DNA of 64,000 bases from a bacterium (GCA_030427125.1 JAUHXF010000001.1:19091-83090), one strand, 5' to 3'; counted from the first letter of the stretch, positions 4,932 to 64,000 are shown. Numbers and translations are program-made. The notes: generated by a model from the letters alone, not told the origin.

Positions 4932-5288
4932 TTACTTCTTTTTACGCTTGGAGTTTTTGCTACGAAAACTTAATCGGCGAGTCATGCGACGCGTGATACT
5001 GTCGCTGAGTTGGTGTTCTTGTGTTGCGAGATATCGTGAACCAATACTTGTTAGTGCAGCGATGACAATTCCAACACCAACTAGAATAAATAGCGCAGTG
5101 ACAACGCGAGATTCGTCGGTAGTCGGATGAATGTCACCGTAGCCGACAGTTGTTAGGGTTGCGACAGAGAAGTAGAAACTTTCTGCCCAGGTCCAATCTT
5201 CGAGATAATGGAACATTACAGTTCCAGCACCAATGAGAAGCATGATGGAAAATACAGCTGATAAAACGGATGTCTTTAGTTTTGGCAT
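4932..5288 (-). CDS. Two-TM potassium channel (Ion_trans_2)
   Basis: K+ selectivity filter TTVGYGD lies between two TM helices, with a basic C-terminal tail. Confidence 0.8.
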   Translation of the reverse strand: MPKLKTSVLSAVFSIMLLIGAGTVMFHYLEDWTWAESFYFSVATLTTVGYGDIHPTTDESRVVTALFILVGVGIVIAALTSIGSRYLATQEHQLSDSITRRMTRRLSFRSKNSKRKKK

Positions 5289-5294
5289 AGTGCT

Positions 5295-5303
5295 ATTTTA
5301 CCA
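5295..5303 (-). promoter_or_regulatory. Extended -10 promoter (TGgTAAAAT) 6 nt upstream of the K+ channel ATG; leaderless mRNA predicted
   Basis: The minus strand reads TGGTAAAAT-AGCACT-ATG, with no Shine-Dalgarno sequence. Confidence 0.45.
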
Positions 5304-5310
5304 GTCATGC

Positions 5311-6093
5311 TTATTTTTTGACGAAACGACCTTTGAGAGAAAATCCTCTTGGAATTATGTATACGATTTCTTTGTCAGTAGATAAGTCGCTTGAGTATGA
5401 AAATCCGTCTTCAGCGAATTTTTCTAGATCTTCTCGTTTCTGAATGTCATTATCTATAACCCAACGAGCTAGTTTTCCACGTGCATACTTTGCAAAAAGA
5501 CCTTTCTCTTTTAGCCCATCATCTGTTTCTTGCATGAAGCGTGGACGAATTGTGGTGACGCCTACTGGTAATGACTGGGTGATCGCGACAGCATATTCCT
5601 GGCTCGCACACAGTAATAGTACTTTTTGTCTCGTACTTTCTAGATACGTCTTAATGTTGTTATGCCAGTATTCATATAAATTGGATTTATTATCTACCTT
5701 GAAAGGTAGCCGCATTTCGAGGCGGTACGGCTGGATAGCATCGAGAGGTCTTAGTAGTCCGTATAATCCACTTACGATAGTAATTCGTTGCTGTGATCGT
5801 TCGATTTCTGGTGACGTCATTGAGTAGGCGTCAATACCGTTATAGACATCACCGGCATACATCCACAAAGCAGCTCGCTTTGGAGTGCTGCTCCATTTTT
5901 GATACCGATCATAATTCAGCTCGCCGAGACTATCGCTTACTTCAAGCGTTTTTATGAGTTGTTTCTGGCTTAGCTTTTGTAATTTGCTGACAACCAGACT
6001 TGTTTCCTTCTGAAATAATGGTTTCGTCATGGAAATACCGTCAGGTTGCGGCTGTTTCATAACTGATTTACTCGGTGATAATACTATGAGCAT
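5311..6093 (-). CDS. yaaA: Peroxide stress protein YaaA (UPF0246/DUF328)
   Basis: N-terminus MLIVLSPSKS and overall YaaA-like pattern; 260 aa. Confidence 0.75.
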   Translation of the reverse strand: MLIVLSPSKSVMKQPQPDGISMTKPLFQKETSLVVSKLQKLSQKQLIKTLEVSDSLGELNYDRYQKWSSTPKRAALWMYAGDVYNGIDAYSMTSPEIERSQQRITIVSGLYGLLRPLDAIQPYRLEMRLPFKVDNKSNLYEYWHNNIKTYLESTRQKVLLLCASQEYAVAITQSLPVGVTTIRPRFMQETDDGLKEKGLFAKYARGKLARWVIDNDIQKREDLEKFAEDGFSYSSDLSTDKEIVYIIPRGFSLKGRFVKK

Positions 6094-6099
6094 GAGTAC

Positions 6100-6108
6100 A
6101 CTGTAGCA
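6100..6108 (-). promoter_or_regulatory. Extended -10 promoter (TGcTACAGT) 6 nt upstream of the yaaA ATG; leaderless mRNA predicted
   Basis: The minus strand reads TGCTACAGT-GTACTC-ATG, with no Shine-Dalgarno sequence. Confidence 0.45.
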
Positions 6109-6119
6109 AAGCAGGTGGG

Positions 6120-7886: not shown

Positions 7887-7915
7887 TTGACGGTTATCGG
7901 CTTTAGACGTATAAT
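7887..7915 (+). promoter_or_regulatory. Sigma-70-type promoter for tRNA-Asn
   Basis: TTGACG, 17 nt spacer, TATAAT. The element lies about 49 nt upstream of the tRNA 5' end. Confidence 0.6.
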
Positions 7916-7963: not shown

Positions 7964-8038
7964 TCCGGAGTAGCTCAGTGGTAGAGCAAGAAGCTGTTAA
8001 CTTCGAGGTCGCTGGTTCGAATCCAGTCTCCGGAGCCA
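7964..8038 (+). tRNA. tRNA-Asn (GTT), CCA encoded
   Basis: Cloverleaf by hand. Acceptor TCCGGAG/CTCCGGA, D arm GCTC/GAGC, anticodon loop CTGTTAA, T arm GCTGG-TTCGAAT-CCAGT, discriminator G, then CCA. Confidence 0.9.
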
Positions 8039-9548: not shown

Positions 9549-9557
9549 TGCTATACT
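9549..9557 (+). promoter_or_regulatory. Extended -10 promoter (TGcTATACT) 6 nt upstream of ATG 9564; leaderless mRNA predicted
   Basis: TGCTATACT-TTAACC-ATG, with no Shine-Dalgarno sequence. Confidence 0.5.
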
Positions 9558-9563
9558 TTAACC

Positions 9564-9839
9564 ATGAAAACGGAAGGAAAATATACTAACGGACAGATCG
9601 TAAAGGAACAAAAAGGTGATATTCTTACGTTTTACCATAAAGATGGGAAGATAAAAGCTCGCGGCAAGTACATTAATGACTCATTTGAGGGCAAGTGGGA
9701 GTTTTTCAAAAAAGAAGGTTATCTATGGAACGTTGGTCATTTTAAAAACAATCAAAAACATGGGAAATGGATACGCTACCGCTCTGACGATAGTATCGAA
9801 AAAGAGCAAGTGTTCAGTGAAGGTATCGAAGTAAAGTAG
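9564..9839 (+). CDS. MORN-variant repeat protein (YwqK-like)
   Basis: Repeats of the type GKYINDSFEGKWEFFKKEG and GHFKNNQKHGKWIRY. Confidence 0.6.
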   Translation: MKTEGKYTNGQIVKEQKGDILTFYHKDGKIKARGKYINDSFEGKWEFFKKEGYLWNVGHFKNNQKHGKWIRYRSDDSIEKEQVFSEGIEVK

Positions 9840-10696: not shown

Positions 10697-10721
10697 CTAA
10701 GCTCTACAGTTTTTCATTATG

Positions 10722-10730
10722 TGAGATACT
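10722..10730 (+). promoter_or_regulatory. Extended -10 promoter (TGaGATACT) 6 nt upstream of ATG 10737; leaderless mRNA predicted
   Basis: ATGTGAGATACTGGT-CTA-ATG. The 15-mer is identical to 15004-15018. Confidence 0.45.
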
Positions 10731-10736
10731 GGTCTA

Positions 10737-15002: not shown

Positions 15003-15006
15003 CATG

Positions 15007-15015
15007 TGAGATACT
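15007..15015 (+). promoter_or_regulatory. Extended -10 promoter (TGaGATACT) 6 nt upstream of ATG 15022; leaderless mRNA predicted
   Basis: ATGTGAGATACTGGT-GGA-ATG. The 15-mer is identical to 10719-10733. Confidence 0.45.
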
Positions 15016-15021
15016 GGTGGA

Positions 15022-15243
15022 ATGAAGAAAAATAAAAACACAATCAAAGCTTATTCGCACTCGGTCTCGATAATGAAGACATTCAGTTGGCGAATTATCG
15101 CAACACTAACAACATTTATGTTGGCATGGTTGTTTACAGGAGAGATTGATACAGCACTGAAAATAGGCGGTGTTGAGTTCTTTGCAAAGATGGTTTTCTA
15201 CTACCTGCATGAACGTGGTTGGGCTTGGATATTACAAAGATGA
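15022..15243 (+). CDS. DUF2061 membrane protein
   Basis: KTFSWRIIATLTTF...GGVEFFAKMVFYYLHERGW matches the DUF2061 pattern. Confidence 0.65.
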   Translation: MKKNKNTIKAYSHSVSIMKTFSWRIIATLTTFMLAWLFTGEIDTALKIGGVEFFAKMVFYYLHERGWAWILQR

Positions 15244-15517: not shown

Positions 15518-15973
15518 CTAATAATCTTTCAATTTTTCTTTGACTTGACCCATTGGCTTTGTAAAGTCGGTCATTTTTGCCTGAATTGGATGGAATTGAA
15601 AGACACTAAACGCACCCTTATGAAGTTTGACTATAGGTGCATAGTCGCTATGTTTATCATATGAGACTTTAAAAACATGCTGCATTACTTCATCGCGTTT
15701 CTTCATGTCTTCTAGTCTGCGAGCTGTTCCCGTTATGTTGACCGCAAGCGGTTTCTCGTTGTCACTAATCGTTAAAGCCGCTCTATCATTCTCAAGAAGA
15801 TTTTTTGCCTTTGTCGTTTGTTCTTTCGTCACAAAGTAGATTTCGCTTTTATCGGCAAGCGCGTAGTAAATGGTTGAGGTATGCGGTTGGCCGTCTTTAT
15901 CTACCGTTGCGAGCACCGCTCGAGTGTGCTGTTTAATGAAATCATTAACTTCGTGATCGAATAGCGAAAGCAT
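15518..15973 (-). CDS. Pyridoxamine 5'-phosphate oxidase family protein (general stress protein 26-like)
   Basis: 151 aa. The RAVLATVDKDGQPHTSTIYY pattern is typical of the PNPOx-like split-barrel fold. Confidence 0.65.
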   Translation of the reverse strand: MLSLFDHEVNDFIKQHTRAVLATVDKDGQPHTSTIYYALADKSEIYFVTKEQTTKAKNLLENDRAALTISDNEKPLAVNITGTARRLEDMKKRDEVMQHVFKVSYDKHSDYAPIVKLHKGAFSVFQFHPIQAKMTDFTKPMGQVKEKLKDY

Positions 15974-15979
15974 AGCTCC

Positions 15980-15988
15980 ACTATAGCA
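15980..15988 (-). promoter_or_regulatory. Extended -10 promoter (TGcTATAGT) 6 nt upstream of ATG 15973; leaderless mRNA predicted
   Basis: The minus strand reads TGCTATAGT-GGAGCT-ATG. Confidence 0.45.
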
Positions 15989-22783: not shown

Positions 22784-22789
22784 TATACT
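22784..22789 (+). promoter_or_regulatory. -10 box (TATACT) 6 nt upstream of the uppP ATG; leaderless mRNA predicted
   Basis: TATACT-GGTGTG-ATG. Confidence 0.35.
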
Positions 22790-22795
22790 GGTGTG

Positions 22796-23572
22796 ATGAG
22801 CATTATAGAAGCAATCATTCTTGGTTTGCTGCAAGGTTTAACGGAGTTTATACCTGTTTCAAGCTCTGGGCATTTACTGATAGCTCACGAGATATTTGGT
22901 ACGACCACAAACACGCTAGCTTTTGATGTTGCTTTGCACGTCGGAACACTTATCGCACTTATCTATTACTTTTGGCGTGACATACTAACGCTCGCAAAGA
23001 ATGTGCTAACCAAAAATAAAGAAGGAGCTCTCGCTCGGTTATTGGTATATGCAACCCTTCCAGCTGCTTTGTTGGGGTTTGTTTTTTCTGATTTTATCGA
23101 CGACCACCTCAGAGAACCAATCGTAGTTGTTATAACGTTGAGCATTATTGCTGTACTCATGATAATTGCAGATAAGCTTTCAGTGAGTAGAAAAAAAACG
23201 GATGAAGTCTCAACAGGTCAGGGGTTGTCTATTGGCTTTGCGCAGGCGTTAGCGCTTGTTCCAGGCGTGTCACGTTCGGGTATCACGATAACAACGGGAG
23301 TTCTAGCAGGATTGACGAAGAAAGAGGCTGCACGATTTTCATTTTTGCTCGCGGTACCAATTATTTCAGGTTCAGCACTAGGAATTTTTCTTCAAGAGTC
23401 CGATGGACTGTCGACGGGTGGATGGCAAATAGCATTTGGTATGATTGCAGCTTGCATTAGTGGTCTATTTGCAATCAAATTCATGCTCGGAATTATTGAG
23501 AAAACTGGACTAACGCCTTTTGCATACTATCGATTTATCGTTGCTGTGTTGGTTCTTATCTTCTTAGTATAG
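22796..23572 (+). CDS. uppP: Undecaprenyl-diphosphate phosphatase
   Basis: SIIEAIILGLLQGLTEFIPVSSSGHL and GVSRSG motifs in a polytopic protein. Confidence 0.9.
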   Translation: MSIIEAIILGLLQGLTEFIPVSSSGHLLIAHEIFGTTTNTLAFDVALHVGTLIALIYYFWRDILTLAKNVLTKNKEGALARLLVYATLPAALLGFVFSDFIDDHLREPIVVVITLSIIAVLMIIADKLSVSRKKTDEVSTGQGLSIGFAQALALVPGVSRSGITITTGVLAGLTKKEAARFSFLLAVPIISGSALGIFLQESDGLSTGGWQIAFGMIAACISGLFAIKFMLGIIEKTGLTPFAYYRFIVAVLVLIFLV

Positions 23573-24340: not shown

Positions 24341-25468
24341 TTACGCCGCGTGCGTGTAGATGAATTCCAAATGTCTATCTTTATATAAAATATTTGGTCC
24401 GGGTGGGTTATATCTTGGTCTGTATTTTCCGGATGGTTTAAAGATGCTACCGGCTGCGCTAATTTCCCAAGCTGCTTGATGCACATCATTTTGCTTCTCG
24501 ATAAACCGTGGAGCGAGAAACGCAAACGGTGTTGGTTGTGGCTTGAGTAGCGTGTCTCTTTTGCCTGTAAATGGATTGGTATAAATATAGAGCGGTATGA
24601 CCATGACGTCGCTCATATCATCATGTCTTCCTCCAGCGATGAGTTTGGTAGTTCCAGAGGCATATGTAGCTTCAATATCGCGCTGTATGTCATGATTAAC
24701 CTCCATTTCTGTCCCTGCTGGTGCCATGAATATATCGCGACCGGATAGTTTACGTAATGCTTTATAGGCTTGCACGGTGCTCCCATTCAAATTCTTTCGG
24801 AGCTGACCTCCCTGAGGAACTCGATTAATAAATCTATCGTAGCCCGAGCCACTGCTCGGAAGTGTGCCAACTTGGCCGCCTGCAACTAGCAGTACGTCAT
24901 CTGAGATGAAGCCACCTTGATGCTCAAAATCACTCGGTTCATACAGTGTTTTAATCAGATCATTTTGGAATAAGTTGATAAGTCTGTGCGTAATTATATC
25001 TTGTGAGTGCTGTGGGTTATCTTGACCAGCCATGAGTTTTGCAATCGCTGATGCAGCTAATAATGAAGGTAAATCTGCGTATGTCTGGTGATTACAGATG
25101 AATAGAATATTGCCGCCTAGTGCTTTGTGGCGCTGAACGTCATCGCTGGAGTATATTTCTGAGAAGGCCGTAACCAGTGCCTCCCAGTCCCCGGGAAGCA
25201 TGACAAGACTACCTACAGTGTTAGACAACCACTCGATATGTTCAGGGCTTATGTCTTCGCGTGCGGGCAGGTAGGAGTACGAAGCATCCAGTGGGTGGGG
25301 CCTTCCAAGACGATCGAGATCTTCAGGGAATTCTCTAACACCGAAGCGAGAAGCATGTTTTGACGAATTAATCTCATGAGCCAGGTGTTCATGGATTGCT
25401 TGAGATTGTTCCGGAGAGACTTCGACACGCTGATCTTCAGCTAGGACATACGTATTTCGCATACTCAT
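24341..25468 (-). CDS. Putative acyltransferase (PlsC/GPAT-like HX4D motif)
   Basis: 375 aa. CNHQTYADLP contains the H-x4-D acyltransferase motif. The rest is unassigned. Confidence 0.4.
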   Translation of the reverse strand: MSMRNTYVLAEDQRVEVSPEQSQAIHEHLAHEINSSKHASRFGVREFPEDLDRLGRPHPLDASYSYLPAREDISPEHIEWLSNTVGSLVMLPGDWEALVTAFSEIYSSDDVQRHKALGGNILFICNHQTYADLPSLLAASAIAKLMAGQDNPQHSQDIITHRLINLFQNDLIKTLYEPSDFEHQGGFISDDVLLVAGGQVGTLPSSGSGYDRFINRVPQGGQLRKNLNGSTVQAYKALRKLSGRDIFMAPAGTEMEVNHDIQRDIEATYASGTTKLIAGGRHDDMSDVMVIPLYIYTNPFTGKRDTLLKPQPTPFAFLAPRFIEKQNDVHQAAWEISAAGSIFKPSGKYRPRYNPPGPNILYKDRHLEFIYTHAA

Positions 25469-25577
25469 ACAGTAAACTAGTTAAGGGACAATAAAAAGTA
25501 AAAAATACTATATCTAGCGTTTAGAATTGAGTGTACACTACTAGCAGTTTCGAGCAATCGAGCGCTTAAAAGCAAAA

Positions 25578-25670: not shown

Positions 25671-25680
25671 TATCTTCAAG

Positions 25681-25712: not shown

Positions 25713-25714
25713 AA

Positions 25715-27518: not shown

Positions 27519-27524
27519 TATACT
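27519..27524 (+). promoter_or_regulatory. -10 box (TATACT) 6 nt upstream of the nadD ATG; leaderless mRNA predicted
   Basis: TATACT-GATAGC-ATG. Confidence 0.35.
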
Positions 27525-27530
27525 GATAGC

Positions 27531-28103
27531 ATGAGAAGGATTGGATTGTTTCCAGGTACGTTTGATCCGATACACGAAGGACACATTGAAGTTGCGCGCT
27601 CAGCGCTAGAAATGCTTGGTCTAGATAGAATCTTTTTCCTTGTAGAAGAGAAGCCCTGGGGCGATAAACACCCAATAGAGGTTGCGCATAGACGCAAGAT
27701 GGTTGATGTGGCAACAAGTAGTGACGACAGAATTTCTCAATTAGTTACTATTGGTGATCATTTTACTATTGGTGAGACACTGCCTTCTCTTGAGCAGTTG
27801 TTCCCCGAAGACGAGCTATATTTTATTTTTGGCGCAGATGTATTCATACACATGAACCCCGAACAGTGGCCGGGGTTAGAAGAAATTTTCAAGCACTATA
27901 TTGTTGTTTTTGAGCGGGGAGTTTTGACAGAAAAGAGAATATCAGAGCATGCTCGCAATATTGGTGTCGCTACCGCTATTGTACCCTCAACACACCCGCA
28001 GCATTCTTCAACTGACGTCCGATTAGAAGCGCATAACAAGGCAGTTTGGGTCCCGGAGTCGGTAGCTCTGTACATAGAAGAGCACAGTTTATATCAAGCT
28101 TAA
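27531..28103 (+). CDS. nadD: Nicotinate-nucleotide adenylyltransferase
   Basis: MRRIGLFPGTFDPIHEGH (the (H/T)xGH nucleotidyltransferase motif). I prefer the ATG at 27531 over the TTG at 27516. Confidence 0.8.
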   Translation: MRRIGLFPGTFDPIHEGHIEVARSALEMLGLDRIFFLVEEKPWGDKHPIEVAHRRKMVDVATSSDDRISQLVTIGDHFTIGETLPSLEQLFPEDELYFIFGADVFIHMNPEQWPGLEEIFKHYIVVFERGVLTEKRISEHARNIGVATAIVPSTHPQHSSTDVRLEAHNKAVWVPESVALYIEEHSLYQA

Positions 28104-37527: not shown

Positions 37528-37599
37528 GCGCACAATAGTACCTCTGTTTCTGTATACCCAGTGTATACTTGCATTAAGATAAAAGCTAACTTACGTACT

Positions 37600-38004: not shown

Positions 38005-38039
38005 TGCCAAAATTCGCTTGGTGGTAAAATAAGCATAAG

Positions 38040-40192: not shown

Positions 40193-40198
40193 TACAAT
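40193..40198 (+). promoter_or_regulatory. -10 box (TACAAT) 6 nt upstream of ATG 40205; leaderless mRNA predicted
   Basis: TACAAT-ATATCT-ATG. Confidence 0.35.
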
Positions 40199-40204
40199 AT
40201 ATCT

Positions 40205-41008
40205 ATGACTCAAAACGAACAGGTTTTTGTGAAAGCTGTTTGGGAATATTTCAACCATCATTCGCGCCAGATGCCGTGGCGTGAACCCGAGAAAGATGGT
40301 ACGTATGATCCGTACAAAATTCTCGTCTCTGAGCTTATGCTGCAACAGACCCAGGTAGATCGAGTTATACCGAAATATAATGCCTTTATTAAAGCATTCC
40401 CAAATTGCAAAAAACTTGCAGCCTCATCCCTAGGAGACGTATTAACTTTATGGTCTGGATTGGGCTACAATCGACGGGCGAAGTATCTCCACGACATTGC
40501 AAAGCAACTCGCAGGCAATCCGTTTCCTCGTACAAAAGAAGAGCTGTCGTCTCTGAAAGGCATAGGTGAAAACACAGCGGCTGCCATTCTGACGTACTCG
40601 TTCAACGAACCGCATGTATTCATTGAGACAAATATCCGCACCGTACTCATACATCATTTTTATCCCGGTAAAGAGTATATTGACGACAAAGATTTGCGAA
40701 ATAAACTGCAAAAGATAGTAGACACAGAGAATCCGCGTGAGTTTATGTGGGGGCTAATGGATTACGGCACCTACCTTAAAAAACAAGGAATAAAAACTCA
40801 TACAAAAAGCAAACATTACACGAAACAGGCTGCTTTTAGAGGTTCAACGAGACAATTAAGAGGCGAAGTACTACGTAGAGCGCAAAAAAGGAGCATGCTT
40901 TCAGATATGCACAAAGAAATAAACGATTCGCGACTGGATTCTGTCGTTAAATCCTTAGTTGATGATGGGTTACTGCTGGTTTCTGATGGCCGCGTGGTAT
41001 TGCCATAA
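40205..41008 (+). CDS. MutY-like HhH-GPD DNA glycosylase lacking an obvious Fe-S cluster loop
   Basis: PWREPEKDGTYDPYKILVSELMLQQTQVDRVIPKY and LKGIGENTAAAIL (HhH). No C-x6-C-x2-C-x5-C motif follows. Confidence 0.7.
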   Translation: MTQNEQVFVKAVWEYFNHHSRQMPWREPEKDGTYDPYKILVSELMLQQTQVDRVIPKYNAFIKAFPNCKKLAASSLGDVLTLWSGLGYNRRAKYLHDIAKQLAGNPFPRTKEELSSLKGIGENTAAAILTYSFNEPHVFIETNIRTVLIHHFYPGKEYIDDKDLRNKLQKIVDTENPREFMWGLMDYGTYLKKQGIKTHTKSKHYTKQAAFRGSTRQLRGEVLRRAQKRSMLSDMHKEINDSRLDSVVKSLVDDGLLLVSDGRVVLP

Positions 41009-43992: not shown

Positions 43993-44722
43993 GACTAGCT
44001 AAATCAAGTTGACTGAATCTTATATCAACCCAGTTGCCAGTATCAGTATCGAGTTCTGCTGGTAGCTGAATCGGGTCCCAACTAAGTTCTGCCATTGCTG
44101 GGTAATGTGCAGTGTAGTCGTTCAACCAGGTATCAAATGCAGATCGGTAATTACCGTTTTCTATCACTTGTCTCAAGCTTTGTATTGGCCTAAATAGTCC
44201 AGGCCTAGCTTCGTCCGAGTCTCTAGCATTCAAGGCAATATAGCTTGCCATAGCTGCATTAGCTCTAAGAGCTGAAACAATACCTAATGTACTGGGTATT
44301 GATCCATCATCGCTCATTTGCCAGTCTAGAACAGTAAATGGCTGGTTGCGAGTAATTAGAAGTCGTGCTTCATCAGGTGCTTCCCGAAGATCTAGTAGCT
44401 GTTCGTCAAGAAAGCACCTTACTAAACAAGACGCGATGTTTTCGATCTTTTGTAGTCTATTTCCTGTAAGATCAACCATTACAGTTTCTGATAATATTCC
44501 TACCTGGTGATCTGTCACTCCATTTTCGGCTCTAGCTTTATGCTCAACAGTAAAGACTCGACCTAATGGGTCTTCTATTGCAAAGCCATAGCCTATTTTG
44601 CCAAAACCATCTCGCTGTGCTTGCGCAATAGCAGCAATATCAAGCTTCGGAAACTGCTCACTCGTATTGATTAGTTCTGAGTAGACACCTAGATGTTCTG
44701 GAAGTGATAGTGAAGACGACAT
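43985..44722 (-). CDS. Hypothetical protein, overlapping and co-oriented with the kinase gene
   Basis: About 245 aa with no recognised motif. ATG 44722 lies 6 nt after a TATTAT box. The ORF-track TTG at 44737 is the alternative. Confidence 0.45.
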   Translation of the reverse strand: MSSSLSLPEHLGVYSELINTSEQFPKLDIAAIAQAQRDGFGKIGYGFAIEDPLGRVFTVEHKARAENGVTDHQVGILSETVMVDLTGNRLQKIENIASCLVRCFLDEQLLDLREAPDEARLLITRNQPFTVLDWQMSDDGSIPSTLGIVSALRANAAMASYIALNARDSDEARPGLFRPIQSLRQVIENGNYRSAFDTWLNDYTAHYPAMAELSWDPIQLPAELDTDTGNWVDIRFSQLDLASHE

Positions 44723-44762
44723 CCATATATAATACAATTAAAACAAAGAGATGCAAATAAGG

Positions 44763-44768
44763 TAATAT
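44763..44768 (+). promoter_or_regulatory. -10 box (TAATAT) 6 nt upstream of the idi ATG; leaderless mRNA predicted
   Basis: TAATAT-GATTGT-ATG. Confidence 0.35.
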
Positions 44769-44774
44769 GATTGT

Positions 44775-45380
44775 ATGGAGTATGTATATTACGTAGATGA
44801 GTCAGATACCCCTACGGGTGAGACGTCAGAAAAGTATACTGCTCATTACAGTGACACGAAACTGCATGCTGCGTTCTCGTGCTATATTTTCAACGAAGAA
44901 GGTAAATTCCTCGTAACTCAACGCGCTGATTCAAAAAAAGTCTGGCCTGGCGTGTGGACTAATTCTTGTTGTGGCCACCCCGCACCCGATGAGAGCAGAG
45001 AGGATGCCATTAACAGGCGAGTTCAATACGAATTGGGTATGAAAGTAAAGAACATCCGTCAAATCATCCCTGATTACATCTATAAAACACCACCGTATAA
45101 TGGCATTATTGAACATGAATATTGTCCGGTATATGTCGCAATAGCGGATTCTGATATAGAACCAAACCCAGATGAAGTGATGGATCATGCATGGATGGAT
45201 TGGTCTGAATATATGCAGAGATTAGAGAGCGACTCTGATGACTACTCTGTCTTTTCAGAAAACGTGCCAGCTGAAATCACAGATGATATGCCTAGGTGGA
45301 GCTGGTGGTGCAAGGATCAGCTAAAGCACCTAAAAGATAATCAAGCTTTCTCTGATTTTATTGAAGATATTATTTCTTAG
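44775..45380 (+). CDS. idi: Isopentenyl-diphosphate delta-isomerase, type 1 (Nudix fold)
   Basis: LHAAFSCYIFNEEGKFLVTQRADSKKVWPGVWTNSCCGHP and EHEY are type-1 IDI hallmarks. Confidence 0.85.
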   Translation: MEYVYYVDESDTPTGETSEKYTAHYSDTKLHAAFSCYIFNEEGKFLVTQRADSKKVWPGVWTNSCCGHPAPDESREDAINRRVQYELGMKVKNIRQIIPDYIYKTPPYNGIIEHEYCPVYVAIADSDIEPNPDEVMDHAWMDWSEYMQRLESDSDDYSVFSENVPAEITDDMPRWSWWCKDQLKHLKDNQAFSDFIEDIIS

Positions 45381-46233
45381 ATTCTTTTGGGTGGTGGACA
45401 ACTCGTTGTGGGAATGGAATCTCTATGCCGTTTTTATCAAACGCAATCTTTAGGCGTTTACGTAGTTCCCCGGTTGCAGCCCATTGCTCCATAGGTACAG
45501 TCGTGCCAAGAATTTTGACGTCTACCGACGAATCACCGAAGTTATCAACGCGCAAAAATACTGGTGCTTCAACGATAATATCTTTCCATTCTTCGTCGTT
45601 CGCGAGCTCTTCACCAACTTGGTTAATAACTTTTTCAACTTTGGCTAAATCGTCACTATAGCTCACGCCCACGTTTAGATTGATATTAGCAAAGTCCATG
45701 GTCATATTTGTTGCCATAGTGATTTCACCGTTTGGAATATGGTGTAACATGCCGTCCAAGTCGCGAAGTACGGTTGCACGCAGCGTGAATTTTTCCACTG
45801 TTCCTGACACTTCTTTATTTAATTCTACGACATCCCCAACTCGATATTGGTTTTCAAGCAGAATAAACGTACCTGTCACAACGTCTTTCACGAGCGATTG
45901 TGCGCCGAAACCAATTGCCAGACCAGCGATACCGGCGCTTGCGATAAGTGGTCCAAGATTGATATTGAATTGCCCCAAGACAATCATGACTGCTACAGCC
46001 CATATGAATACAGTGGCTGTGGTTGAGAGGATGCTTTTTAGCGTGTCTTCACGAGCCACTTCATCTCTCTCTGACTCAAATTGGTTTGATTTAACAGCTC
46101 GCTCAACCGCACGACCAATGAATGTGTTAACGGTTTTCTGTGCAAAGCTAGCAATTGCAATAACGACTAAAACACCAAGGACATTGTTCAAAAAGAAATC
46201 AATAATCGTTTGCCATGTTGAGCTGTCTTCCAT
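45370..46233 (-). CDS. Small-conductance mechanosensitive channel (MscS family)
   Basis: Three TM helices and a beta-domain with the RVGDVVEL pattern. TGtTATACT lies 7 nt upstream of the ATG. Confidence 0.8.
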   Translation of the reverse strand: MEDSSTWQTIIDFFLNNVLGVLVVIAIASFAQKTVNTFIGRAVERAVKSNQFESERDEVAREDTLKSILSTTATVFIWAVAVMIVLGQFNINLGPLIASAGIAGLAIGFGAQSLVKDVVTGTFILLENQYRVGDVVELNKEVSGTVEKFTLRATVLRDLDGMLHHIPNGEITMATNMTMDFANINLNVGVSYSDDLAKVEKVINQVGEELANDEEWKDIIVEAPVFLRVDNFGDSSVDVKILGTTVPMEQWAATGELRKRLKIAFDKNGIEIPFPQRVVHHPKESKK

Positions 46234-46286
46234 TCAGTCTAGTATAACAACTCTACTGTATGATGGAAGTAGTTTGGAGGAAATAA

Positions 46287-48141: not shown

Positions 48142-49433
48142 GCGAACTCCTTTCGGAGCCACTCGTCGAGCGAGCCACCACCGCCCGCTGAAAGACAAAG
48201 TACTAAGTTTCCACTATCTAGTTCGGAGCGTATGTGTTCTCTCAGGTCATTGTTTAGTTCAGCTGGGATTTTTTCGTCTGGGGATTGTATGATCTGAACG
48301 AGTTTTTCTGGTGTGAGGTCCTCGAGTGATTCGTCTTCACGTGCTTTATAGCTTGGTACGACGTAGAGTTTTTTGCACCCCCTAAATATGTCAGCTAGCT
48401 GTTCACGAATAAAATGCTGTCTCGTGTTGTGTAAGCCCTCATAGATGACAACAACATTATCACCTGCGATTTCACGAGTCAGCTGCAGCGCTCCCTTGAT
48501 CTTTTCGGGTGTGTGGGCATAGTCCGTGTAGAGATTATCAGCGAGCTTTTCGAAGCGGCGTGATACTCCTGGAAAAGAACACAGCAAAGATTGAAGCTCG
48601 ACAATATCTTCTTTTTCTAATTCAAGCAGCAGTGCTTGAGCGACTAAATGGGCATTCTCTCGGTTTACTCTGCCTGGTAGTTTTATCAGTTCATCAGGAT
48701 AGTCTTCTTTGTTCATGAGTAGCATTTTTTGCGTAGACTCTAGTTTGCCTAAACGGTTTGCATCGTCTTCCCACATAACTATCTGTTCAGATTGGTGTAT
48801 AAACTGTAGAAACGCGTTGTTATAGTCATCTGTTGTTGGGTAAATATCTGGATGATCATATGCTATCCCGGGGATAATGGATAGCTGTGGCTGAAACGCT
48901 AGAAAGTTTCGGTCATACTCATCAGCTTCATATACGAAATACTTTGCTTGCGGATTAAACTCGCCCACGCCCCCAAACGATAATTTACCACCAACAGAAT
49001 AGCTGACGGGTAGTCCGAGTTCTTTGAATAACCAGATAACCATTGCTGTCGTTGTAGTTTTGCCGTGTGTTCCCGCAATCGCAATCATCTTTTGATCAGT
49101 ATCATCCAATAATTTCTGTAGAAACTCGTCTCGTTTTGATCTCCGAATGTTATTTTTATCAGCAAAGACTAACTCAGGATGATGTTCATGCTCTTTTTCG
49201 ACAGCTGACGAATATACAAGCCAATCAATTTGGTTTGTATCGTGTACAGCCCGAATTGCTTCTTCTGTTTGGCCGATGTGGATAGACTTGATGCCTTTGG
49301 AGCGAAGATTCTTTAGGTAGTCAGAATCTTGTTTATCAGAACCTGATACTTCATAGCCAGCTTGTTTCGCTATTAATGCTAAAGGGCCAATACCAGCTCC
49401 GCCAATTCCTGAGAAGTATATGTGTCCGCGCAT
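48138..49433 (-). CDS. murC: UDP-N-acetylmuramate--L-alanine ligase
   Basis: GIGGAGIGPLA N-terminal Rossmann motif and Mur-ligase P-loop GTHGKTTTTAM. Confidence 0.85.
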   Translation of the reverse strand: MRGHIYFSGIGGAGIGPLALIAKQAGYEVSGSDKQDSDYLKNLRSKGIKSIHIGQTEEAIRAVHDTNQIDWLVYSSAVEKEHEHHPELVFADKNNIRRSKRDEFLQKLLDDTDQKMIAIAGTHGKTTTTAMVIWLFKELGLPVSYSVGGKLSFGGVGEFNPQAKYFVYEADEYDRNFLAFQPQLSIIPGIAYDHPDIYPTTDDYNNAFLQFIHQSEQIVMWEDDANRLGKLESTQKMLLMNKEDYPDELIKLPGRVNRENAHLVAQALLLELEKEDIVELQSLLCSFPGVSRRFEKLADNLYTDYAHTPEKIKGALQLTREIAGDNVVVIYEGLHNTRQHFIREQLADIFRGCKKLYVVPSYKAREDESLEDLTPEKLVQIIQSPDEKIPAELNNDLREHIRSELDSGNLVLCLSAGGGGSLDEWLRKEFA

Positions 49434-49495
49434 AGCTCCTAGTCTACCCTGTTGCAGAGATGTTTGCTATAGTGGTGCCAAAGGTTTAAACAAAA

Positions 49496-52543: not shown

Positions 52544-52564
52544 TACTAATTATTTCTTATATTA

Positions 52565-52595
52565 TAGCTCTCGGTTTTCGTCGGGGGCTATTTTT
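52565..52595 (+). terminator. Intrinsic terminator
   Basis: TAGCTCTCG pairs with CGGGGGCTA (including G-U pairs), followed by T5. Confidence 0.6.
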
Positions 52596-52633
52596 ATTGG
52601 AAACTAACTTCAAGCAGGTATATAGTTAAAGTG

Positions 52634-53404
52634 ATGAAATCAAGCGGGTCAAAACCAATTCTACAAGCAGAAAATCTCACGAAGCATTATGATGGGGTTC
52701 AAGTAGTAAAAGGGATTAGTTTTGACGTTAAAAAGGGTGAAATATTCGGGATTCTTGGCCCTAACGGGGCTGGCAAGACGACGACACTCGAAATGCTTGA
52801 AACAATGCGAGAGATTGATGGCGGCAAGGCAATCATAGCCGGCATCGATGTAGCAAAGAACCAAGATAAGGTTAAAGCTATCATTGGTGTGCAACCTCAG
52901 ACGCCGAATTTTGAGGAAAAGACCAAACTTGTTGAATTGATTAGTTTTCTAGCATCTTGTTATGGTGAAAAAGTTGACGCTATTGAGCTGTTAAAAAAGG
53001 TTAACCTTGAAGAAAAAGCCAACAGCTATCCTGAAAACCTTTCAGGAGGCCAGCGGCAGCGCTTTAGTATTGCTACTGCTCTTGTGCACGGACCGAAAGT
53101 ATTCTTCCTCGATGAGCCAACGACCGGCTTAGACCCACAGGCACGCAGAAACCTTTGGGATCTTGTAAAAGAAGTACGTGATAGCGGTATAACTGTTGTT
53201 ATGACGACGCATTATATGGATGAGGCTGAAATACTTTGCGATCGCGTTGCGATAATGGATGAAGGTAAAATCATCGCACTTGATACGCCAAAGAAACTGA
53301 TTAAAAACCTGCTTGCCAAAGGATTTAAGAAAGAGCAGCATGTGGAGCAAGCAGACCTCGAAGACGTGTTTATAGATTTAACCGGAAAGGCCTTGAGGGA
53401 ATAG
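52634..53404 (+). CDS. ABC transporter ATP-binding protein
   Basis: Walker A GPNGAGKTT, signature LSGGQRQRF, Walker B VFFLDEPTTGLD. Confidence 0.9.
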   Translation: MKSSGSKPILQAENLTKHYDGVQVVKGISFDVKKGEIFGILGPNGAGKTTTLEMLETMREIDGGKAIIAGIDVAKNQDKVKAIIGVQPQTPNFEEKTKLVELISFLASCYGEKVDAIELLKKVNLEEKANSYPENLSGGQRQRFSIATALVHGPKVFFLDEPTTGLDPQARRNLWDLVKEVRDSGITVVMTTHYMDEAEILCDRVAIMDEGKIIALDTPKKLIKNLLAKGFKKEQHVEQADLEDVFIDLTGKALRE

Positions 53405-54531: not shown

Positions 54532-54540
54532 TGATAGAAT
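54532..54540 (+). promoter_or_regulatory. Extended -10 promoter (TGaTAGAAT) 6 nt upstream of the crtI ATG; leaderless mRNA predicted
   Basis: TGATAGAAT-TAAGTA-ATG, with no Shine-Dalgarno sequence. Confidence 0.5.
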
Positions 54541-54546
54541 TAAGTA

Positions 54547-55995
54547 ATGAAAAAAGTTGTCATTATCGGCGGTGGCTTCGGTGGGTTGTCTGCTGCGTGC
54601 TACTTGGCTCGTGATGGCTATGATGTAACGTTGCTTGAGAAAAACGATCATGTTGGTGGTCGCGGTATGGTCATGAAGGACAAGGGATATACGTTTGACC
54701 TGGGTCCAAGCTGGTACATGATGCCCGATGTGTTCGAAGATTTTTTTGCAGATTTTGGTAAGAAGACGTCAGAGTATTTTGAACTTGTGAAACTAGATCC
54801 ATCCTATAAGGTTTTTTTCGCCAATGAGCAATATGATGTACATGACGCACCAGAGGTGTTTACGCTATTTGAAGCGCTCGAAAAAGGGTCGTCGGAAAAA
54901 TTAAAGCTGTTCCTAAAGCAAACCAAAGAAGAATACGACACGGTTCGAAAAAATCTTCTCGAGCTGGCCATGACGAATCCAACTGATGCCCTGAATAGCT
55001 CAGCGATAAAGATGCTATCAAGACCTGAGTTGGTTGGCTCATACCATCGGCGGGTGAAACGCTATGTGAAAGACGAGAGGCTACAAAAAATTCTAGAATT
55101 TATGGTTGTCTTTATGGGCGGTTCACCTAAAAACATTCCTGCACTCTATTCGCTGCTTGCCTATGTCGACATGGGGCTTGGCATTTGGTATCCAATGGGC
55201 GGTATGAGTAGGCTTGCAGCCGCCTATGAAAAGCTTGCATTAGAACTAGGTGTAGCAATTCATACAAATCGTGAAGTAGTCGGGATAACACGTAAGAATG
55301 GTCGAGCCAATATTGTTGAAACAGTCGATGAGGCCTTTGATGCTGACATTGTTGTTGCTAATGCAGATTATCAGCATGTTGAGACAAAACTTCTTGGAAT
55401 AGAATCAAAAAAATGGGACAAGATGACCATGTCACCGTCCGGCTTGTTGATATACCTTGGCATAAATAAGAAGATTCCATTTTTGCGTCATCACAATCTG
55501 TTTTTTGATGTTGATTGGGACGCCCATTTTGGAGAAGTATTTGACCAGAAAGTATGGAGTGAAGAGCCGTTGTTTTATATTGGCGCGCCATCTGTCACTG
55601 ACCCTAGCGTTGCGCCAAAAGGGAAAGAAAATATCTTCATATTGGCTCCCATGGCAAGCGGCATCAAGGTAGACAAGGAGCAGGAGACGAGGACAGTAAA
55701 TAAAATTTTAGAAAGGATCTCTAAGCATACAGGTGTAGATATTGATAAACATACAGACGTTAAGCATGTGAGATCGCATCAGTATTTCATAGAGACGTTC
55801 AATGCATTCAAGGGTAATGCCTTTGGTCCAGCTCATACACTGAAGCAATCAGCTATTTTCCGCCCTAAAATGCAGAGTAAGCATGTACAAAATCTCTACT
55901 TTGTTGGGCAGTTTACTAACCCCGGTACAGGCGTGCCTTTGGTGACGATATCTGGTAAAGTTGTTGCAACGCTTATAAACAAGCGGGAGAAATAA
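54547..55995 (+). CDS. crtI: Phytoene desaturase family FAD-dependent oxidoreductase
   Basis: Dinucleotide fold VVIIGGGFGGLSAA, LGPSWYMMPDVFE and C-terminal FVGQFTNPGTGVP. Confidence 0.85.
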   Translation: MKKVVIIGGGFGGLSAACYLARDGYDVTLLEKNDHVGGRGMVMKDKGYTFDLGPSWYMMPDVFEDFFADFGKKTSEYFELVKLDPSYKVFFANEQYDVHDAPEVFTLFEALEKGSSEKLKLFLKQTKEEYDTVRKNLLELAMTNPTDALNSSAIKMLSRPELVGSYHRRVKRYVKDERLQKILEFMVVFMGGSPKNIPALYSLLAYVDMGLGIWYPMGGMSRLAAAYEKLALELGVAIHTNREVVGITRKNGRANIVETVDEAFDADIVVANADYQHVETKLLGIESKKWDKMTMSPSGLLIYLGINKKIPFLRHHNLFFDVDWDAHFGEVFDQKVWSEEPLFYIGAPSVTDPSVAPKGKENIFILAPMASGIKVDKEQETRTVNKILERISKHTGVDIDKHTDVKHVRSHQYFIETFNAFKGNAFGPAHTLKQSAIFRPKMQSKHVQNLYFVGQFTNPGTGVPLVTISGKVVATLINKREK

Positions 55996-56662: not shown

Positions 56663-56686
56663 ACTGTTGAATAATTAGCATAACTG

Positions 56687-56695
56687 TGATATAAT
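56687..56695 (+). promoter_or_regulatory. Extended -10 promoter (TGaTATAAT) 6 nt upstream of ATG 56702; leaderless mRNA predicted
   Basis: TGATATAAT-ATGATT-ATG. Confidence 0.5.
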
Positions 56696-56701
56696 ATGAT
56701 T

Positions 56702-57025
56702 ATGAATCGACTACTTTTTGATGGTCCTAAATTCGACTCTAATGATTCTGGTGATGCAGCACTTGTAGACCCCCATGTTCCTAACAGATCAAGGGCGCAG
56801 GGCGAAGATGTCGAGGGCAGGGATAGATTAACAAATGCAGAAATGCTGGAAATTGATCATCCTCAAACTGTCTCAGTTGAGTTATCGGCAAAGGATATTG
56901 CAATGCGAGCAGCGCAAAGAATTAAACCAGAGGAACCTTTTTCTTACCGGAACTTACCAAGCGGTTCTGACGGGCTAGCTGAAGACCGTGCTCGAGCACT
57001 AGGTAGAACAACAGATGACGAATAG
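56702..57025 (+). CDS. Hypothetical protein
   Basis: About 107 aa, acidic, with no motif. The ORF-track ATG at 56696 abuts the -10 box, so I prefer 56702. Confidence 0.45.
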   Translation: MNRLLFDGPKFDSNDSGDAALVDPHVPNRSRAQGEDVEGRDRLTNAEMLEIDHPQTVSVELSAKDIAMRAAQRIKPEEPFSYRNLPSGSDGLAEDRARALGRTTDDE

Positions 57026-59855: not shown

Positions 59856-59883
59856 TTGTTACTCTGGTAGTTACTCCTATAAT
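59856..59883 (+). promoter_or_regulatory. Sigma-70-type promoter for tRNA-Met
   Basis: TTGTTA, 16 nt spacer, TATAAT. A second TATAAT lies at 59888-59893. Confidence 0.45.
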
Positions 59884-59919: not shown

Positions 59920-59995
59920 GGGGCTGTAGCTCAGGGGTTAGAGCAGTCGGCTCATAACCGATTGGTCGCTGGTTCAAATCCAGCCAGCCCCACCA
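59920..59995 (+). tRNA. tRNA-Met (CAT), elongator-type, CCA encoded; a lysidine-modified tRNA-Ile2 cannot be excluded
   Basis: Acceptor GGGGCTG/CAGCCCC, anticodon loop CTCATAA, T arm GCTGG-TTCAAAT-CCAGC. It lacks the 1:72 mismatch and the three G-C pairs of initiator tRNAs. Confidence 0.85.
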
Positions 59996-62232: not shown

Positions 62233-62267
62233 TATGTGTATAAGTATAGTTCTGCTTTAGCGTTTTC

Positions 62268-62861
62268 TTAAGAAATAATATTCGTGATGCCGTCAATAAT
62301 TAGTCCTACGCCATATGCACCAACAATGAACCCATTCATTCTAAGAAGAATCTCGGCATTTTTATCAAACATGATGTTGTATTTGTTAGGCAGGTAATGC
62401 CTAGCGGTCATTAGGGCTGCTACAGCTACAAAAGTCGCGAGCATAACAATCAGCAGGGTAGTGATACCTTTTATTGGTCTGAGCGCCTCCCCGATAAGAA
62501 TGCTTAATGTAATAGTTCCTGCGCCCACCATGAATGGGAGCGCCACTTCTGAAGCGATCTTGCCTATCTCGCCTCTCGTGGTAATCATTGATTTCTTACC
62601 CTGCAAGATGAAGCTTAGGGCAAAGCTGACGAGTACGATGCCACCAAAAATTCGAAAGGCCTCGAAGTCGATTTGTAGAAACTCGAACAATCCTTGTCCA
62701 AATAGAACAAATGCACCGTAAATTATAAAAGCAATCGCACAGGCGCTAGCGAGGATGCGGTAGAACGTACCCAGGCCCTGCTCCTTGTAGAGCGGGACCA
62801 TATATATGAATAGTGCGAACGGGTTGAGTAGGATGAGAAATGAAACTATATATGCGAACAT
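62268..62861 (-). CDS. MarC family (UPF0056) membrane protein
   Basis: 197 aa and six TM helices, with an LLNPFALFIY pattern at the N-terminus. Confidence 0.7.
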   Translation of the reverse strand: MFAYIVSFLILLNPFALFIYMVPLYKEQGLGTFYRILASACAIAFIIYGAFVLFGQGLFEFLQIDFEAFRIFGGIVLVSFALSFILQGKKSMITTRGEIGKIASEVALPFMVGAGTITLSILIGEALRPIKGITTLLIVMLATFVAVAALMTARHYLPNKYNIMFDKNAEILLRMNGFIVGAYGVGLIIDGITNIIS

Positions 62862-62914
62862 GCGAAGCCGATAATAGCAGGTTTATTTCTTCGTTACCAT
62901 AAGATTTTTTATGT

Positions 62915-63223
62915 TTAGTATCTCAAGATTTCAACTATTGAAAGCTCTTTGAGTTTATTCTTTTTTGAGGTTGCATCTTGACTAAGGATGAGTATTTGCT
63001 TGTCAGTGTTTTGCTCACAAATCGACTTGTTTTGCGGCGTCTGCTCTTTCCCGTCCATGCAGCTTGTGTAAATATCGTTTTGTAGCGCCGTTGCATTTTG
63101 GATTTGTCCGTCAAGCTTAGTGATTTCTCTGTCGACCTCACTCTTCTTATACAGATAGAAGCTCGATAACCCTACTACGAGAATCATGAGGATAAATAAC
63201 AAACCGATGAAAAAGTTTTTCAT
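62915..63223 (-). CDS. Hypothetical membrane-anchored coiled-coil protein
   Basis: I prefer ATG 63223 (MKNFFIGLLFILMILVV...). The longer ORF-track N-terminus from 63340 looks non-coding. Confidence 0.4.
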   Translation of the reverse strand: MKNFFIGLLFILMILVVGLSSFYLYKKSEVDREITKLDGQIQNATALQNDIYTSCMDGKEQTPQNKSICEQNTDKQILILSQDATSKKNKLKELSIVEILRY

Positions 63224-63380
63224 ATGCACGATTATCTCACAAAAACAAAAACCCATCCGATGATGGGTCTTTATCTTGGTAGCCCAGGTGGCTTCAGTTA
63301 GGAACGATATTCTAGCTGAGTTGAGTCGGTGGAGACACATAGAATACGGATATAACTAAATTGTAATATATAAAAAACCG

Positions 63381-63389
63381 TGTTATAGT
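63381..63389 (+). promoter_or_regulatory. Extended -10 promoter (TGtTATAGT) 6 nt upstream of ATG 63396; leaderless mRNA predicted
   Basis: TGTTATAGT-ATACCA-ATG. Confidence 0.5.
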
Positions 63390-63395
63390 ATACCA

Positions 63396-64000
63396 ATGAG
63401 TGAGATTTTAACTAACCAATTAGAGCTTGAAGCTGAACTAGCTTCTCAGGCAGTTATTGATAAAGAGAGCCTGAGTGCAGTCGCAAGTGTTATTAATCCC
63501 GAAGCAGCAAGGTTCGTAACGGCTATTTCAACACCAGAGGCTGCTTTTATTCCAGCGTATACAGCTTATCTTCTAGATCGTGAAGGAAGCATCATTGAAT
63601 ACCCAGTTATTACTGGTGTCAATCAGGATAACGCTGAGGCTTTTACAGCTGGCGCAGAACAGGTAAGTCGAATCTATACCGAAGGAAATCCACTTATAAG
63701 AGCTACTGCAGTTATGATGTTTTCTGAGGAGGGTCTTCTTTCAGGTATGCATGAAGAGTTAACAGAAGGTTCAGGAAGTTCAGGGCCAGTTCTATTAGGT
63801 GGCGGCATGATGGTATATGGAAGTAAGTCTGATGGAGTCAAGGGTGCTGATTTTGTAGGTATAGACTTTGCAGAACAAATGGGAGACGCAACGGATCTTG
63901 CAGATATGGTTGGGTTGAACAGAAATATGCTAGATACGATGCTTGATACTCTTGAATCACCCCAGGCCCAAGCAGTGAAGCCACTACTAGATATTTACGA
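63396..64000 (+). CDS. Hypothetical protein, N-terminal fragment; 3' end lies outside the window
   Basis: The frame is open from ATG 63396 to the window end (about 201 codons, MSEILTNQLELEAELASQ...). It is absent from the ORF track because no stop falls in the window. Confidence 0.55.
   Translation, partial: MSEILTNQLELEAELASQAVIDKESLSAVASVINPEAARFVTAISTPEAAFIPAYTAYLLDREGSIIEYPVITGVNQDNAEAFTAGAEQVSRIYTEGNPLIRATAVMMFSEEGLLSGMHEELTEGSGSSGPVLLGGGMMVYGSKSDGVKGADFVGIDFAEQMGDATDLADMVGLNRNMLDTMLDTLESPQAQAVKPLLDIY

Follow-up and report, generated by a model that had tools for sequence, protein, structure and literature searches.

The genomic segment and its gene starts

The stretch of DNA analysed here (GCA_030427125.1 JAUHXF010000001.1:19091-83090; hereafter the window, 64,000 nucleotides (nt), with positions counted from its first letter) is a segment of a chromosome of Candidatus Saccharibacteria (TM7; Patescibacteria/candidate phyla radiation, CPR), with 43% GC and dense coding on both strands. 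This assignment follows from its AspRS (aspS, 32128-33876), which shares at most 80% identity with those of uncultured Candidatus Saccharibacteria genome bins, and from the 80 best aspS loci in a species-representative genome collection, essentially all of which belong to Saccharibacteria/Saccharimonadales. Our subject is a -10 promoter box that recurs 6 or 7 nt upstream of start codons without a Shine-Dalgarno (SD) sequence, an arrangement predicted to give leaderless messenger RNAs (mRNAs), i.e. transcripts that lack a 5′ untranslated region (UTR). The 80 related Saccharibacteria loci, from 80 species and totalling 1.37 Mb at 36-58% GC, served as an independent test set, and together with the window make up the 81 sequences referred to below. 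Spacers are counted as the nucleotides between the -10 hexamer and the start codon, with a spacing of 16-17 nt as the control; the -10 pattern was scored as TANNNT, its extended form as TGnTANNNT and a form free of stop codons as TA[TC]NNT.

With start codons placed by open reading frame (ORF) logic, 81 gene starts were tallied in the window. Nineteen carry a -10 box at 6-7 nt and no SD sequence, seven carry a box at 8-10 nt, 38 are SD-led, one has both signals and 16 have neither. The initial annotation had listed 15 starts with a box at 6 or 7 nt, and their start codons, boxes and spacings are all as described there, with the reservation that the boxes at 10737 and 15022 read GATACT. Weak or misplaced purine runs are seen at three of them: 15973 has a GGAG 2 nt from the ATG, too near to serve as an SD sequence, and 22796 and 44775 have a weak GAGG/AAGG 10-12 nt upstream. 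The sites at 25462, 37527, 49433 and 52634, and the whole of the 8-10 nt class, are additions to that list. The sites with a box at 6-7 nt, followed by the 8-10 nt class, are:

5286..5303, minus strand: TGgTAAAAT, 6 nt, ATG 5288; gene for a 118-amino-acid K+ channel-like protein, after a 22-nt gap from a yaaA-like gene
6091..6108, minus strand: TGcTACAGT, 6 nt, ATG 6093; YaaA-family gene, position 1 of the Pfam model falling on residue 1
9549..9566, plus strand: TGcTATACT, 6 nt, ATG 9564; ORF of 91 amino acids
10719..10739, plus strand: aTGTGaGATACT, 6 nt, ATG 10737; non-canonical -10, with G at -12, extended upstream by a TRTG-type element
15004..15024, plus strand: aTGTGaGATACT, 6 nt, ATG 15022; DUF2061 membrane protein gene
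15971..15988, minus strand: TGcTATAGT, 6 nt, ATG 15973; PNPOx-like gene
22784..22798, plus strand: TATACT, 6 nt, ATG 22796; uppP/bacA
25460..25474, minus strand: TACTGT, 6 nt, ATG 25462; weaker candidate, with a rival ATG at 25468
27519..27533, plus strand: TATACT, 6 nt, ATG 27531; cytidylyltransferase-like (NadD-type) gene
37527, minus strand: TACTAT, 7 nt; start ambiguous, with a GTG at 37533 that has GAGG 7 nt upstream
40193..40207, plus strand: TACAAT, 6 nt, ATG 40205; HhH-GPD glycosylase gene
44720..44734, minus strand: TATTAT, 6 nt, ATG 44722; divergent partner of 44775
44763..44777, plus strand: TAATAT, 6 nt, ATG 44775; NUDIX gene
46231..46249, minus strand: TGtTATACT, 7 nt, ATG 46233; MscS-like channel gene
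49431..49446, minus strand: TAGACT, 7 nt, ATG 49433; MurC-like ligase gene
52597..52636, plus strand: TTGGAA, 18 nt, TATAGT, 7 nt, ATG 52634; ABC ATPase gene
54532..54549, plus strand: TGaTAGAAT, 6 nt, ATG 54547; FAD amine-oxidase/phytoene-desaturase-like gene
56667..56704, plus strand: TTGAAT, 17 nt, TGaTATAAT, 6 nt, ATG 56702; match at 10/12 two-hexamer positions plus TG
63381..63398, plus strand: TGtTATAGT, 6 nt, ATG 63396; ORF still open at the end of the window
38019..38042, plus strand: TGgTAAAAT, 9 nt, ATG 38040; belongs to the 8-10 nt class, for which a leader of 1-3 nt is predicted
All seven starts of the 8-10 nt class: 3909(-), 4267(-), 38040, 42591, 60032, 62232(-) and 62861(-)

A -10 box peaks at 6-7 nt from the start codon

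Placement of the box relative to the start codon is sharply restricted, both in the window and across the lineage. Among starts in the window that are the first ATG of their ORF, TANNNT occurs nine times at spacer 6 and seven times at spacer 7, against ~2.5 per other spacer (Poisson P ~7e-5). The 80 related loci give 172 and 99 matches at these two spacers against ~42 at the others, and for the extended form 60 and 32 against ~4 elsewhere. A version that is free of start calls, measuring from the motif to any ATG that opens an ORF of at least 80 codons, returned the same 6-7 nt peak. The count of motif-to-ATG distances that the initial annotation had proposed as a check, carried out on the 80 related loci and on the window, therefore yields the peak that it anticipated. 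Over all starts, 278 of 1332 have a box at 6-7 nt compared with 69 at the control spacing, the corresponding figures for the window being 15 of 70 and 2; the excess is seen in 66 of the 81 sequences, spanning 36-58% GC. An artefact of in-frame TAA/TAG stop codons upstream of the start was considered and rejected, as the stop-free form retains 124 and 66 matches at spacers 6 and 7 against ~21, and in the 80 related loci no peak appears at the other in-frame spacers of 3, 12 and 15.

The motif resembles a sigma-70 extended -10 promoter

A motif profile conditioned solely on T-12, A-11 and T-7 at spacers 6-7 (n=364) was used to read the positions left free. Upstream of the hexamer these show T-17 (42%), T-15 (52%) and G-14 (49%), and in and after it T-10 (43%), A-9 (65%), A or C at -8 (82%) and A-6 (52%), giving the consensus T-R-T-G-n-T-A-t-a-a/c-T, with information of no more than 0.04 bit in the -35 region at -30 to -36. 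Upstream regions of non-SD starts taken without any conditioning yield the same T-G-n-T-A...T pattern. Within the window, 11 of the 19 sites with a box at 6-7 nt and no SD sequence have TG one base upstream of the hexamer, compared with roughly 10% of TANNNT matches at other spacers.

Scans of the window for two-hexamer sigma-70 promoters found no excess over shuffled sequence (38 vs 46, 36 vs 40 and 47 vs 40), which we attribute to weak use of the -35 element and not to an absence of promoters. The same scan recovered full promoters before two tRNA genes, before 56702 and before 52634, the last of which comes directly downstream of a strong terminator (52564-52591). The tRNA gene at 7964-8035 has TTGACG-17-TATAAT at 7887-7915 (+), 49 nt upstream, the top match of the window at 11/12; that at 59920-59992 has TTGTTA-16-TATAAT at 59856-59883 (+), 37 nt upstream, at 10/12. 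Stable-RNA genes, unlike protein genes, appear to use full -35/-10 promoters.

The motif is also found at leader distance from SD-led genes, with TGcTATAGT 21 nt before the SD-led start at 49496, and TGgTAAAAT lies 26 nt before 59130(-). Cloned promoter fragments from TM7x and Southlakia that drive reporters in Saccharibacteria contain either TTTACA-N17-TATAAT (the two tuf fragments) or TGaTATAAT (the rpsJ one), far upstream of AAGGAG(G) (PMC10633639 Table S4). These published cassettes were considered as possible leaderless examples and set aside, the tuf and rpsJ leaders being about 60-90 nt long and containing AAGGAG(G) (PMC10633639).

Sequence correlates of the predicted initiation at the A of the start codon

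Transcription starts lie about 7 nt past the last T of the -10 hexamer. A spacer of 6 would thus place the first transcribed base at the A of the ATG, and three properties of the starts bear on this. A pyrimidine occupies -1 in 86% of spacer-6 starts vs 67% of SD-led starts (P = 1.6e-7), which agrees with the preference of RNA polymerase for Y(-1)R(+1). Starts with an extended -10 at 6-7 nt are ATG in 112 cases, GTG in 10 and TTG in 3, over a background of about 12, 5 and 6, whereas SD-led starts comprise 506 ATG, 130 GTG and 100 TTG (P = 3e-7 between the two classes); a near-exclusive use of ATG is what a mechanism requiring a 5′-terminal AUG predicts. Across the loci, a -10 box at 6-7 nt and an SD sequence strongly exclude one another (odds ratio 0.20, P = 5e-28).

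SD motifs themselves peak at spacers 4-10, and GGAGG/AAGGAG-led genes are present in the window as well, in line with the coexistence of two initiation modes put forward in the initial annotation. The 3′ end of 16S rRNA (GGATCACCTCCTT) was sought in the 80 loci as a check on the anti-SD sequence, and no 16S end lies there; SD usage is consequently read from motif enrichment.

Assignment of the start codons

Six of the boxed genes have Pfam models that begin at residues 1-6, namely YaaA (6093), BacA/UppP (22796), PNPOx (15973), cytidylyltransferase (27531), MurC-like (49433) and the FAD Rossmann fold (54547), and in each the ATG is the first start codon after the upstream in-frame stop, so that a true start further upstream, or one appreciably downstream, is precluded. 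Alignments of orthologues start at the same ATG. At 54547 the Rossmann motif runs from residue 2-3, and this start therefore cannot be further downstream. The spacing had been proposed to settle four start codons: those at 22796 and 27531 are supported by orthologue N-termini and Pfam, whereas those at 56702 and 44722 are conditional on the promoter reading, because rival upstream start codons adjoin the -10 hexamer (ATG 56696, abutting its 3′ end, and a start codon at 44737, immediately 5′ of it, respectively).

Dependence on operon position

Genes transcribed divergently from their neighbour, which cannot do without a promoter of their own, have a box in 157 of 488 cases (32%), compared with 49 (10%) at the control spacing, and same-strand genes that follow a gap of 14-60 nt have one in 78 of 237 (33%). 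Where same-strand genes abut or overlap (gaps <14 nt) the proportion falls to 20 of 240 (8%) and SD sequences dominate; in the window, all genes with a gap <6 nt and a callable signal are SD-led and none is boxed. Enrichment at divergent genes and depletion inside operons, taken with the occurrence of the motif at leader distances, before tRNA genes and in the reporter fragments, favour a promoter acting at the DNA level over an A/U-rich ribosome element.

Conservation and switching among orthologues

Five gene families illustrate how the signals are distributed among orthologues:

MurC-like ligase, 27 orthologues: box at 6-7 nt in 20, box at 8-10 nt in 3, SD in 0, none in 4
HhH-GPD glycosylase, 27 orthologues: box at 6-7 nt in 11, box at 8-10 nt in 9, SD in 0, none in 7
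236-amino-acid gene, 30160-30870, minus strand, 54 orthologues: box at 6-7 nt in 2, box at 8-10 nt in 0, SD in 43, none in 9
aspS, 78 orthologues: box at 6-7 nt in 9, box at 8-10 nt in 17, SD in 42, none in 10
MazG-like gene, 24 orthologues: box at 6-7 nt in 7, box at 8-10 nt in 1, SD in 13, none in 3

In the MurC-like family the box holds its position while the surrounding non-coding sequence is unalignable. Similar placement is seen in smaller sets: uppP/bacA orthologues (loci L001, L002, L003 and L007) have TATAAT or TATACT 7-8 nt from the aligned ATG, in orthologues of the 27531 gene (L001, L002 and L026) the -10 box stands at 6 nt, and all six MscS-like orthologues with an aligned N-terminus (L003, L006, L015, L007, L040 and L078) have TANNNT 6-7 nt before a nearby in-frame ATG. 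The aspS gene is SD-led in the window and has TGGTA(A/G/C)AAT 6-10 nt from its ATG in 26 other genomes, and in the window the MazG-like gene is preceded by GGAGG. As read from these alignments, the aspS series is a set of natural evolutionary switches between initiation modes, and the mode of initiation is gene-specific, under selection and switched now and then, which more than any other evidence argues that the boxes have a function. A few aspS loci, e.g. L049, carry both signals: TGGTAAAATAAGGAGAATATG.

Predicted leaderless transcripts and the alternatives to them

We consider it probable (roughly 80%) that the boxed genes are expressed as leaderless mRNAs from extended -10 sigma-70 promoters that do not depend on a -35 element, with SD-led initiation used elsewhere. 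Under this model, the housekeeping sigma-70 RNA polymerase would recognise an extended -10 element with little or no -35 at about a quarter of genes, and transcription would begin at the A of the start codon, which stands 6 or 7 nt past the hexamer. The resulting mRNA would have neither a 5′ UTR nor an SD sequence, and the ribosome with its initiator tRNA would bind the 5′-terminal AUG directly, while other genes, notably those abutting an upstream operon gene, would use GGAGG/AAGGAG sites. Both the start of transcription at the A and the translation of the leaderless transcript are predictions from the DNA sequence. Leaderless mRNAs were what the initial annotation had suggested, and each prediction of that idea tested at the level of sequence came out as expected, with respect to the spacing peak, the motif, the base at -1, the preference for ATG and the exclusion of SD sequences.

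Several observations weigh against this model or limit its reach. Counted over the whole window, TGNTANNNT-N6-ATG occurs 7 times vs 3.06 expected, and 3 of 100 shuffles reach 7, while TANNNT-N6-ATG occurs 52 times vs 47 in shuffles; such raw counts are too coarse a measure, since the signal resides in the placement of matches at gene starts and not in how many there are, and all seven extended matches in the window do precede an ATG that is the first of a long ORF. Chance would account for about a quarter of the TANNNT matches at 6-7 nt, and the weak sites at 25462, 37527, 44775 (TAATAT) and 44722 (TATTAT) may be coincidence. The boxes at 10737 and 15022, with G at -12 preceded by TGTGa, fit TGnNAnnnT and not TGnTAnnnT. 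Several boxes (5288, 6093, 15022, 40205 and 54547) sit 17-26 nt behind a gene on the same strand, and no terminator intervenes, from which it follows that read-through polycistronic transcripts must also carry these SD-less genes, which may then be translated by re-initiation or else only from their own leaderless transcripts; in related genomes this class, with gaps of 17-30 nt, has a box in 32 of 119 genes vs 6 at the control spacing. Finally, the one set of TM7x start sites that we found, 188 sites obtained by ordinary RNA-seq, is described as imprecise and as having unusually variable -10-to-start distances (PMC12641261).

The read-through argument also speaks for a different account, in which the UAUAAU-like element acts on RNA, as an A/U-rich non-SD enhancer or a ribosome (S1) site, and is not a promoter. 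Many boxes lie in very short same-strand gaps without a terminator, so that the genes behind them are also on read-through transcripts, and in other phyla A/U-rich biases around -10 have been considered as potential S1 sites (PMC5397173). The positional pattern is, however, that of sigma-70 (invariant T-12, A-11 and T-7, with TG at -15/-14 and TRTG), the spacing is restricted to 6-7 nt and tied to a pyrimidine at -1, and nearly no motif precedes GTG or TTG starts. The motif is moreover scarce at operon-internal genes that abut their neighbour, the very place where one would most need a ribosome site, and enriched at divergent genes, and it is also seen well upstream of SD-led genes and of tRNAs (49496; 7887-7915; 59856-59883). 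We therefore regard an RNA-level element as quite unlikely. Composition fares worse still: TANNNT is frequent at 43% GC, in-frame TAA/TAG can pass for a box at -12 (one of them opens about 30% of the spacer-6 hexamers, at 175 TANNNT vs 124 TA[TC]NNT), and the window total of TANNNT-N6-ATG does not stand out from that of shuffles, but a peak that is confined to spacers 6-7, survives removal of the stop codons, spans 36-58% GC, has promoter-like bases at the free positions -15, -14, -9 and -1 and is kept in position among orthologues leaves chance effectively refuted.

Alternatively, the promoters may be real and the transcripts not strictly leaderless, with transcription starting a few bases off the ATG or the true start codon lying downstream. 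This would accommodate the tail of boxes at 8-11 nt (seven starts in the window, and 17 of the 78 aspS orthologues) and the variable -10-to-start distances reported for TM7x (PMC12641261), and it draws on the fact that start codons were called by ORF logic alone. A downstream start would, however, cut into N-termini that are conserved, with Pfam domains running from residues 1-6, and orthologue alignments share the same ATG. Leaders of 1-3 nt, furthermore, behave as leaderless in characterised systems. We judge such an offset to be unlikely, and retain leaderless initiation from extended -10 promoters as the best explanation.

Comparison with known systems

The closest parallel is group C of GeneMarkS-2, in which the first genes of operons have a Pribnow box 6-8 nt before their start, other genes use SD sequences and an estimated 25-50% of operons are leaderless, and which comprises lineages of Actinobacteria (Mycobacterium tuberculosis, M. 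smegmatis, Corynebacterium and Streptomyces) and Deinococcus-Thermus (PMC6028130). The Saccharibacteria share with it a box 6-8 nt from the start, SD sequences elsewhere, a weak or absent -35 and a strong preference for AUG, and the 25-50% of leaderless operons in group C may be set against the 32% of divergent genes boxed here (10% at the control spacing). All the features of group C that can be tested in sequence are found in our data: the peak, here at 6-7 nt, the exclusivity with SD sequences, the first-gene position and AUG. In contrast to the high-GC Actinobacteria and Deinococcus of group C, the organisms here are Saccharibacteria/CPR with tiny epibiont genomes of 36-58% GC; TGn/TRTG is prominent, promoters often occupy gaps of 17-30 nt after the previous stop, and the system is known from its sequence only.

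Both hallmarks of the extended -10 class, TG upstream of the hexamer and a weak or dispensable -35, are likewise present. The elements resemble the extended -10 (TGn) promoters of Escherichia coli and the TRTG '-16 region' of Gram-positive bacteria in having TG at -15/-14, T-17, TAnnnT and a dispensable -35, and differ from them in that the promoter is tied to an ATG at 6-7 nt. Archaeal leaderless genes (Haloferax, Sulfolobus; group D) similarly combine a promoter element at a fixed distance with the lack of an SD sequence and with SD-led internal operon genes, though there the element is a TATA box/BRE ~26 nt upstream, bound by TBP/TFB, whereas here it is a bacterial sigma-70 -10 at 6-7 nt. 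In E. coli, the leaderless mRNAs of lambda cI (from PRM) and Tn1721 tetR start at the A of the AUG and are translated from the 5′-terminal AUG; these are rare exceptions in an SD-dominated genome, whereas the mode described here is genome-wide and lineage-wide.

In our literature search no full-text paper tied Saccharibacteria, Patescibacteria, CPR or TM7 to leaderless mRNA or to the use of SD sequences, the hits being entries in reference lists or unrelated senses of the words, a search that did not cover the list of group C genomes of GeneMarkS-2. A survey of non-SD initiation in 260 genomes includes zero CPR genomes (PMC5397173). The preprint on the TM7x transcriptome makes no mention of start sites or promoters. 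The NCBI annotation pipeline runs GeneMarkS-2 on genomes of this kind, and the pattern in Saccharibacteria may hence already be modelled implicitly. What we describe is a known leaderless architecture in a lineage for which we found no published description; the mechanism itself is not new.

Implications

On balance we lean towards leaderless extended -10 initiation being an old, class-wide trait of Saccharibacteria, possibly extending more widely through CPR/Patescibacteria, that serves about a quarter to a third of transcription units and persists in individual genes over deep divergence, with the MurC-like and HhH-GPD genes almost always leaderless and the aspS and MazG-like genes switching repeatedly. 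If so, CPR would join the Actinobacteria and Deinococcus-Thermus among leaderless-rich lineages, and the former include the hosts of cultivated Saccharibacteria. Leaderless translation would thereby be extended to a deep-branching lineage of reduced genomes, with clear switching between modes.

Saccharibacteria are the best-studied members of CPR and have become genetically tractable only recently, and the lack of basic expression tools has been described in reviews as a bottleneck (PMC11665869). If a quarter or more of their transcription units prove to be leaderless, cassettes of ~15-20 bp (TGnTATAAT-N6-ATG) could provide expression without a ribosome-binding site. For annotation, a box at 6-7 nt would sharpen the placement of start codons in thousands of genome bins, in which gene finders that ignore the box would mis-start genes. 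The absence of a 5′ UTR would also mean that regulation of these genes must be transcriptional or act via the coding region.

Other features of the window

Two arrangements of boxed genes in the window were noted besides. An exact 15-mer, ATGTGAGATACTGGT, occurs twice on the plus strand (10719-10733 and 15004-15018), ending 3 nt short of the ATG in each case; this repeat, which contains GATACT and its TGTG extension, could be a promoter variant or an operator shared by two small membrane-protein genes. At 44720-44777, the divergent starts 44722(-) and 44775(+) are 52 bp apart with one -10 box each at 6 nt, so that the predicted leaderless promoters stand back to back with about 28 bp between their hexamers.

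A gene of the opposite kind is found at 25715. An AdoCbl-II (cobalamin) riboswitch aptamer at 25565-25644 (+) scores 44.2 bits against a gathering score of 36.5 and is followed by a terminator-like hairpin with a T-run (25678-25713), the 3′ arm of which holds the GAGGG ribosome site of the gene that begins at ATG 25715, an ORF of 548 amino acids with no Pfam match. By these signals, 25715 is a leadered, riboswitch-controlled gene in a reduced genome.

Two genes on the plus strand, for a member of the squalene/phytoene synthase family (42591-43433) and for the FAD amine-oxidase of phytoene-desaturase-like type (54547-55995), are isoprenoid genes of the carotenoid or squalene type, which seem unexpected in a metabolically reduced Saccharibacterium. 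Two further genes encode large multidomain products: 6120-7496 (-) specifies 458 amino acids with DUF285, cadherin-like and PKD-like domains, and 38040-40187 (+) specifies 715 amino acids with DUF5050 and carboxypeptidase-regulatory-like domains. Both products are probably secreted or surface proteins, and a role at the cell surface of the epibiont or in attachment to its host is possible.

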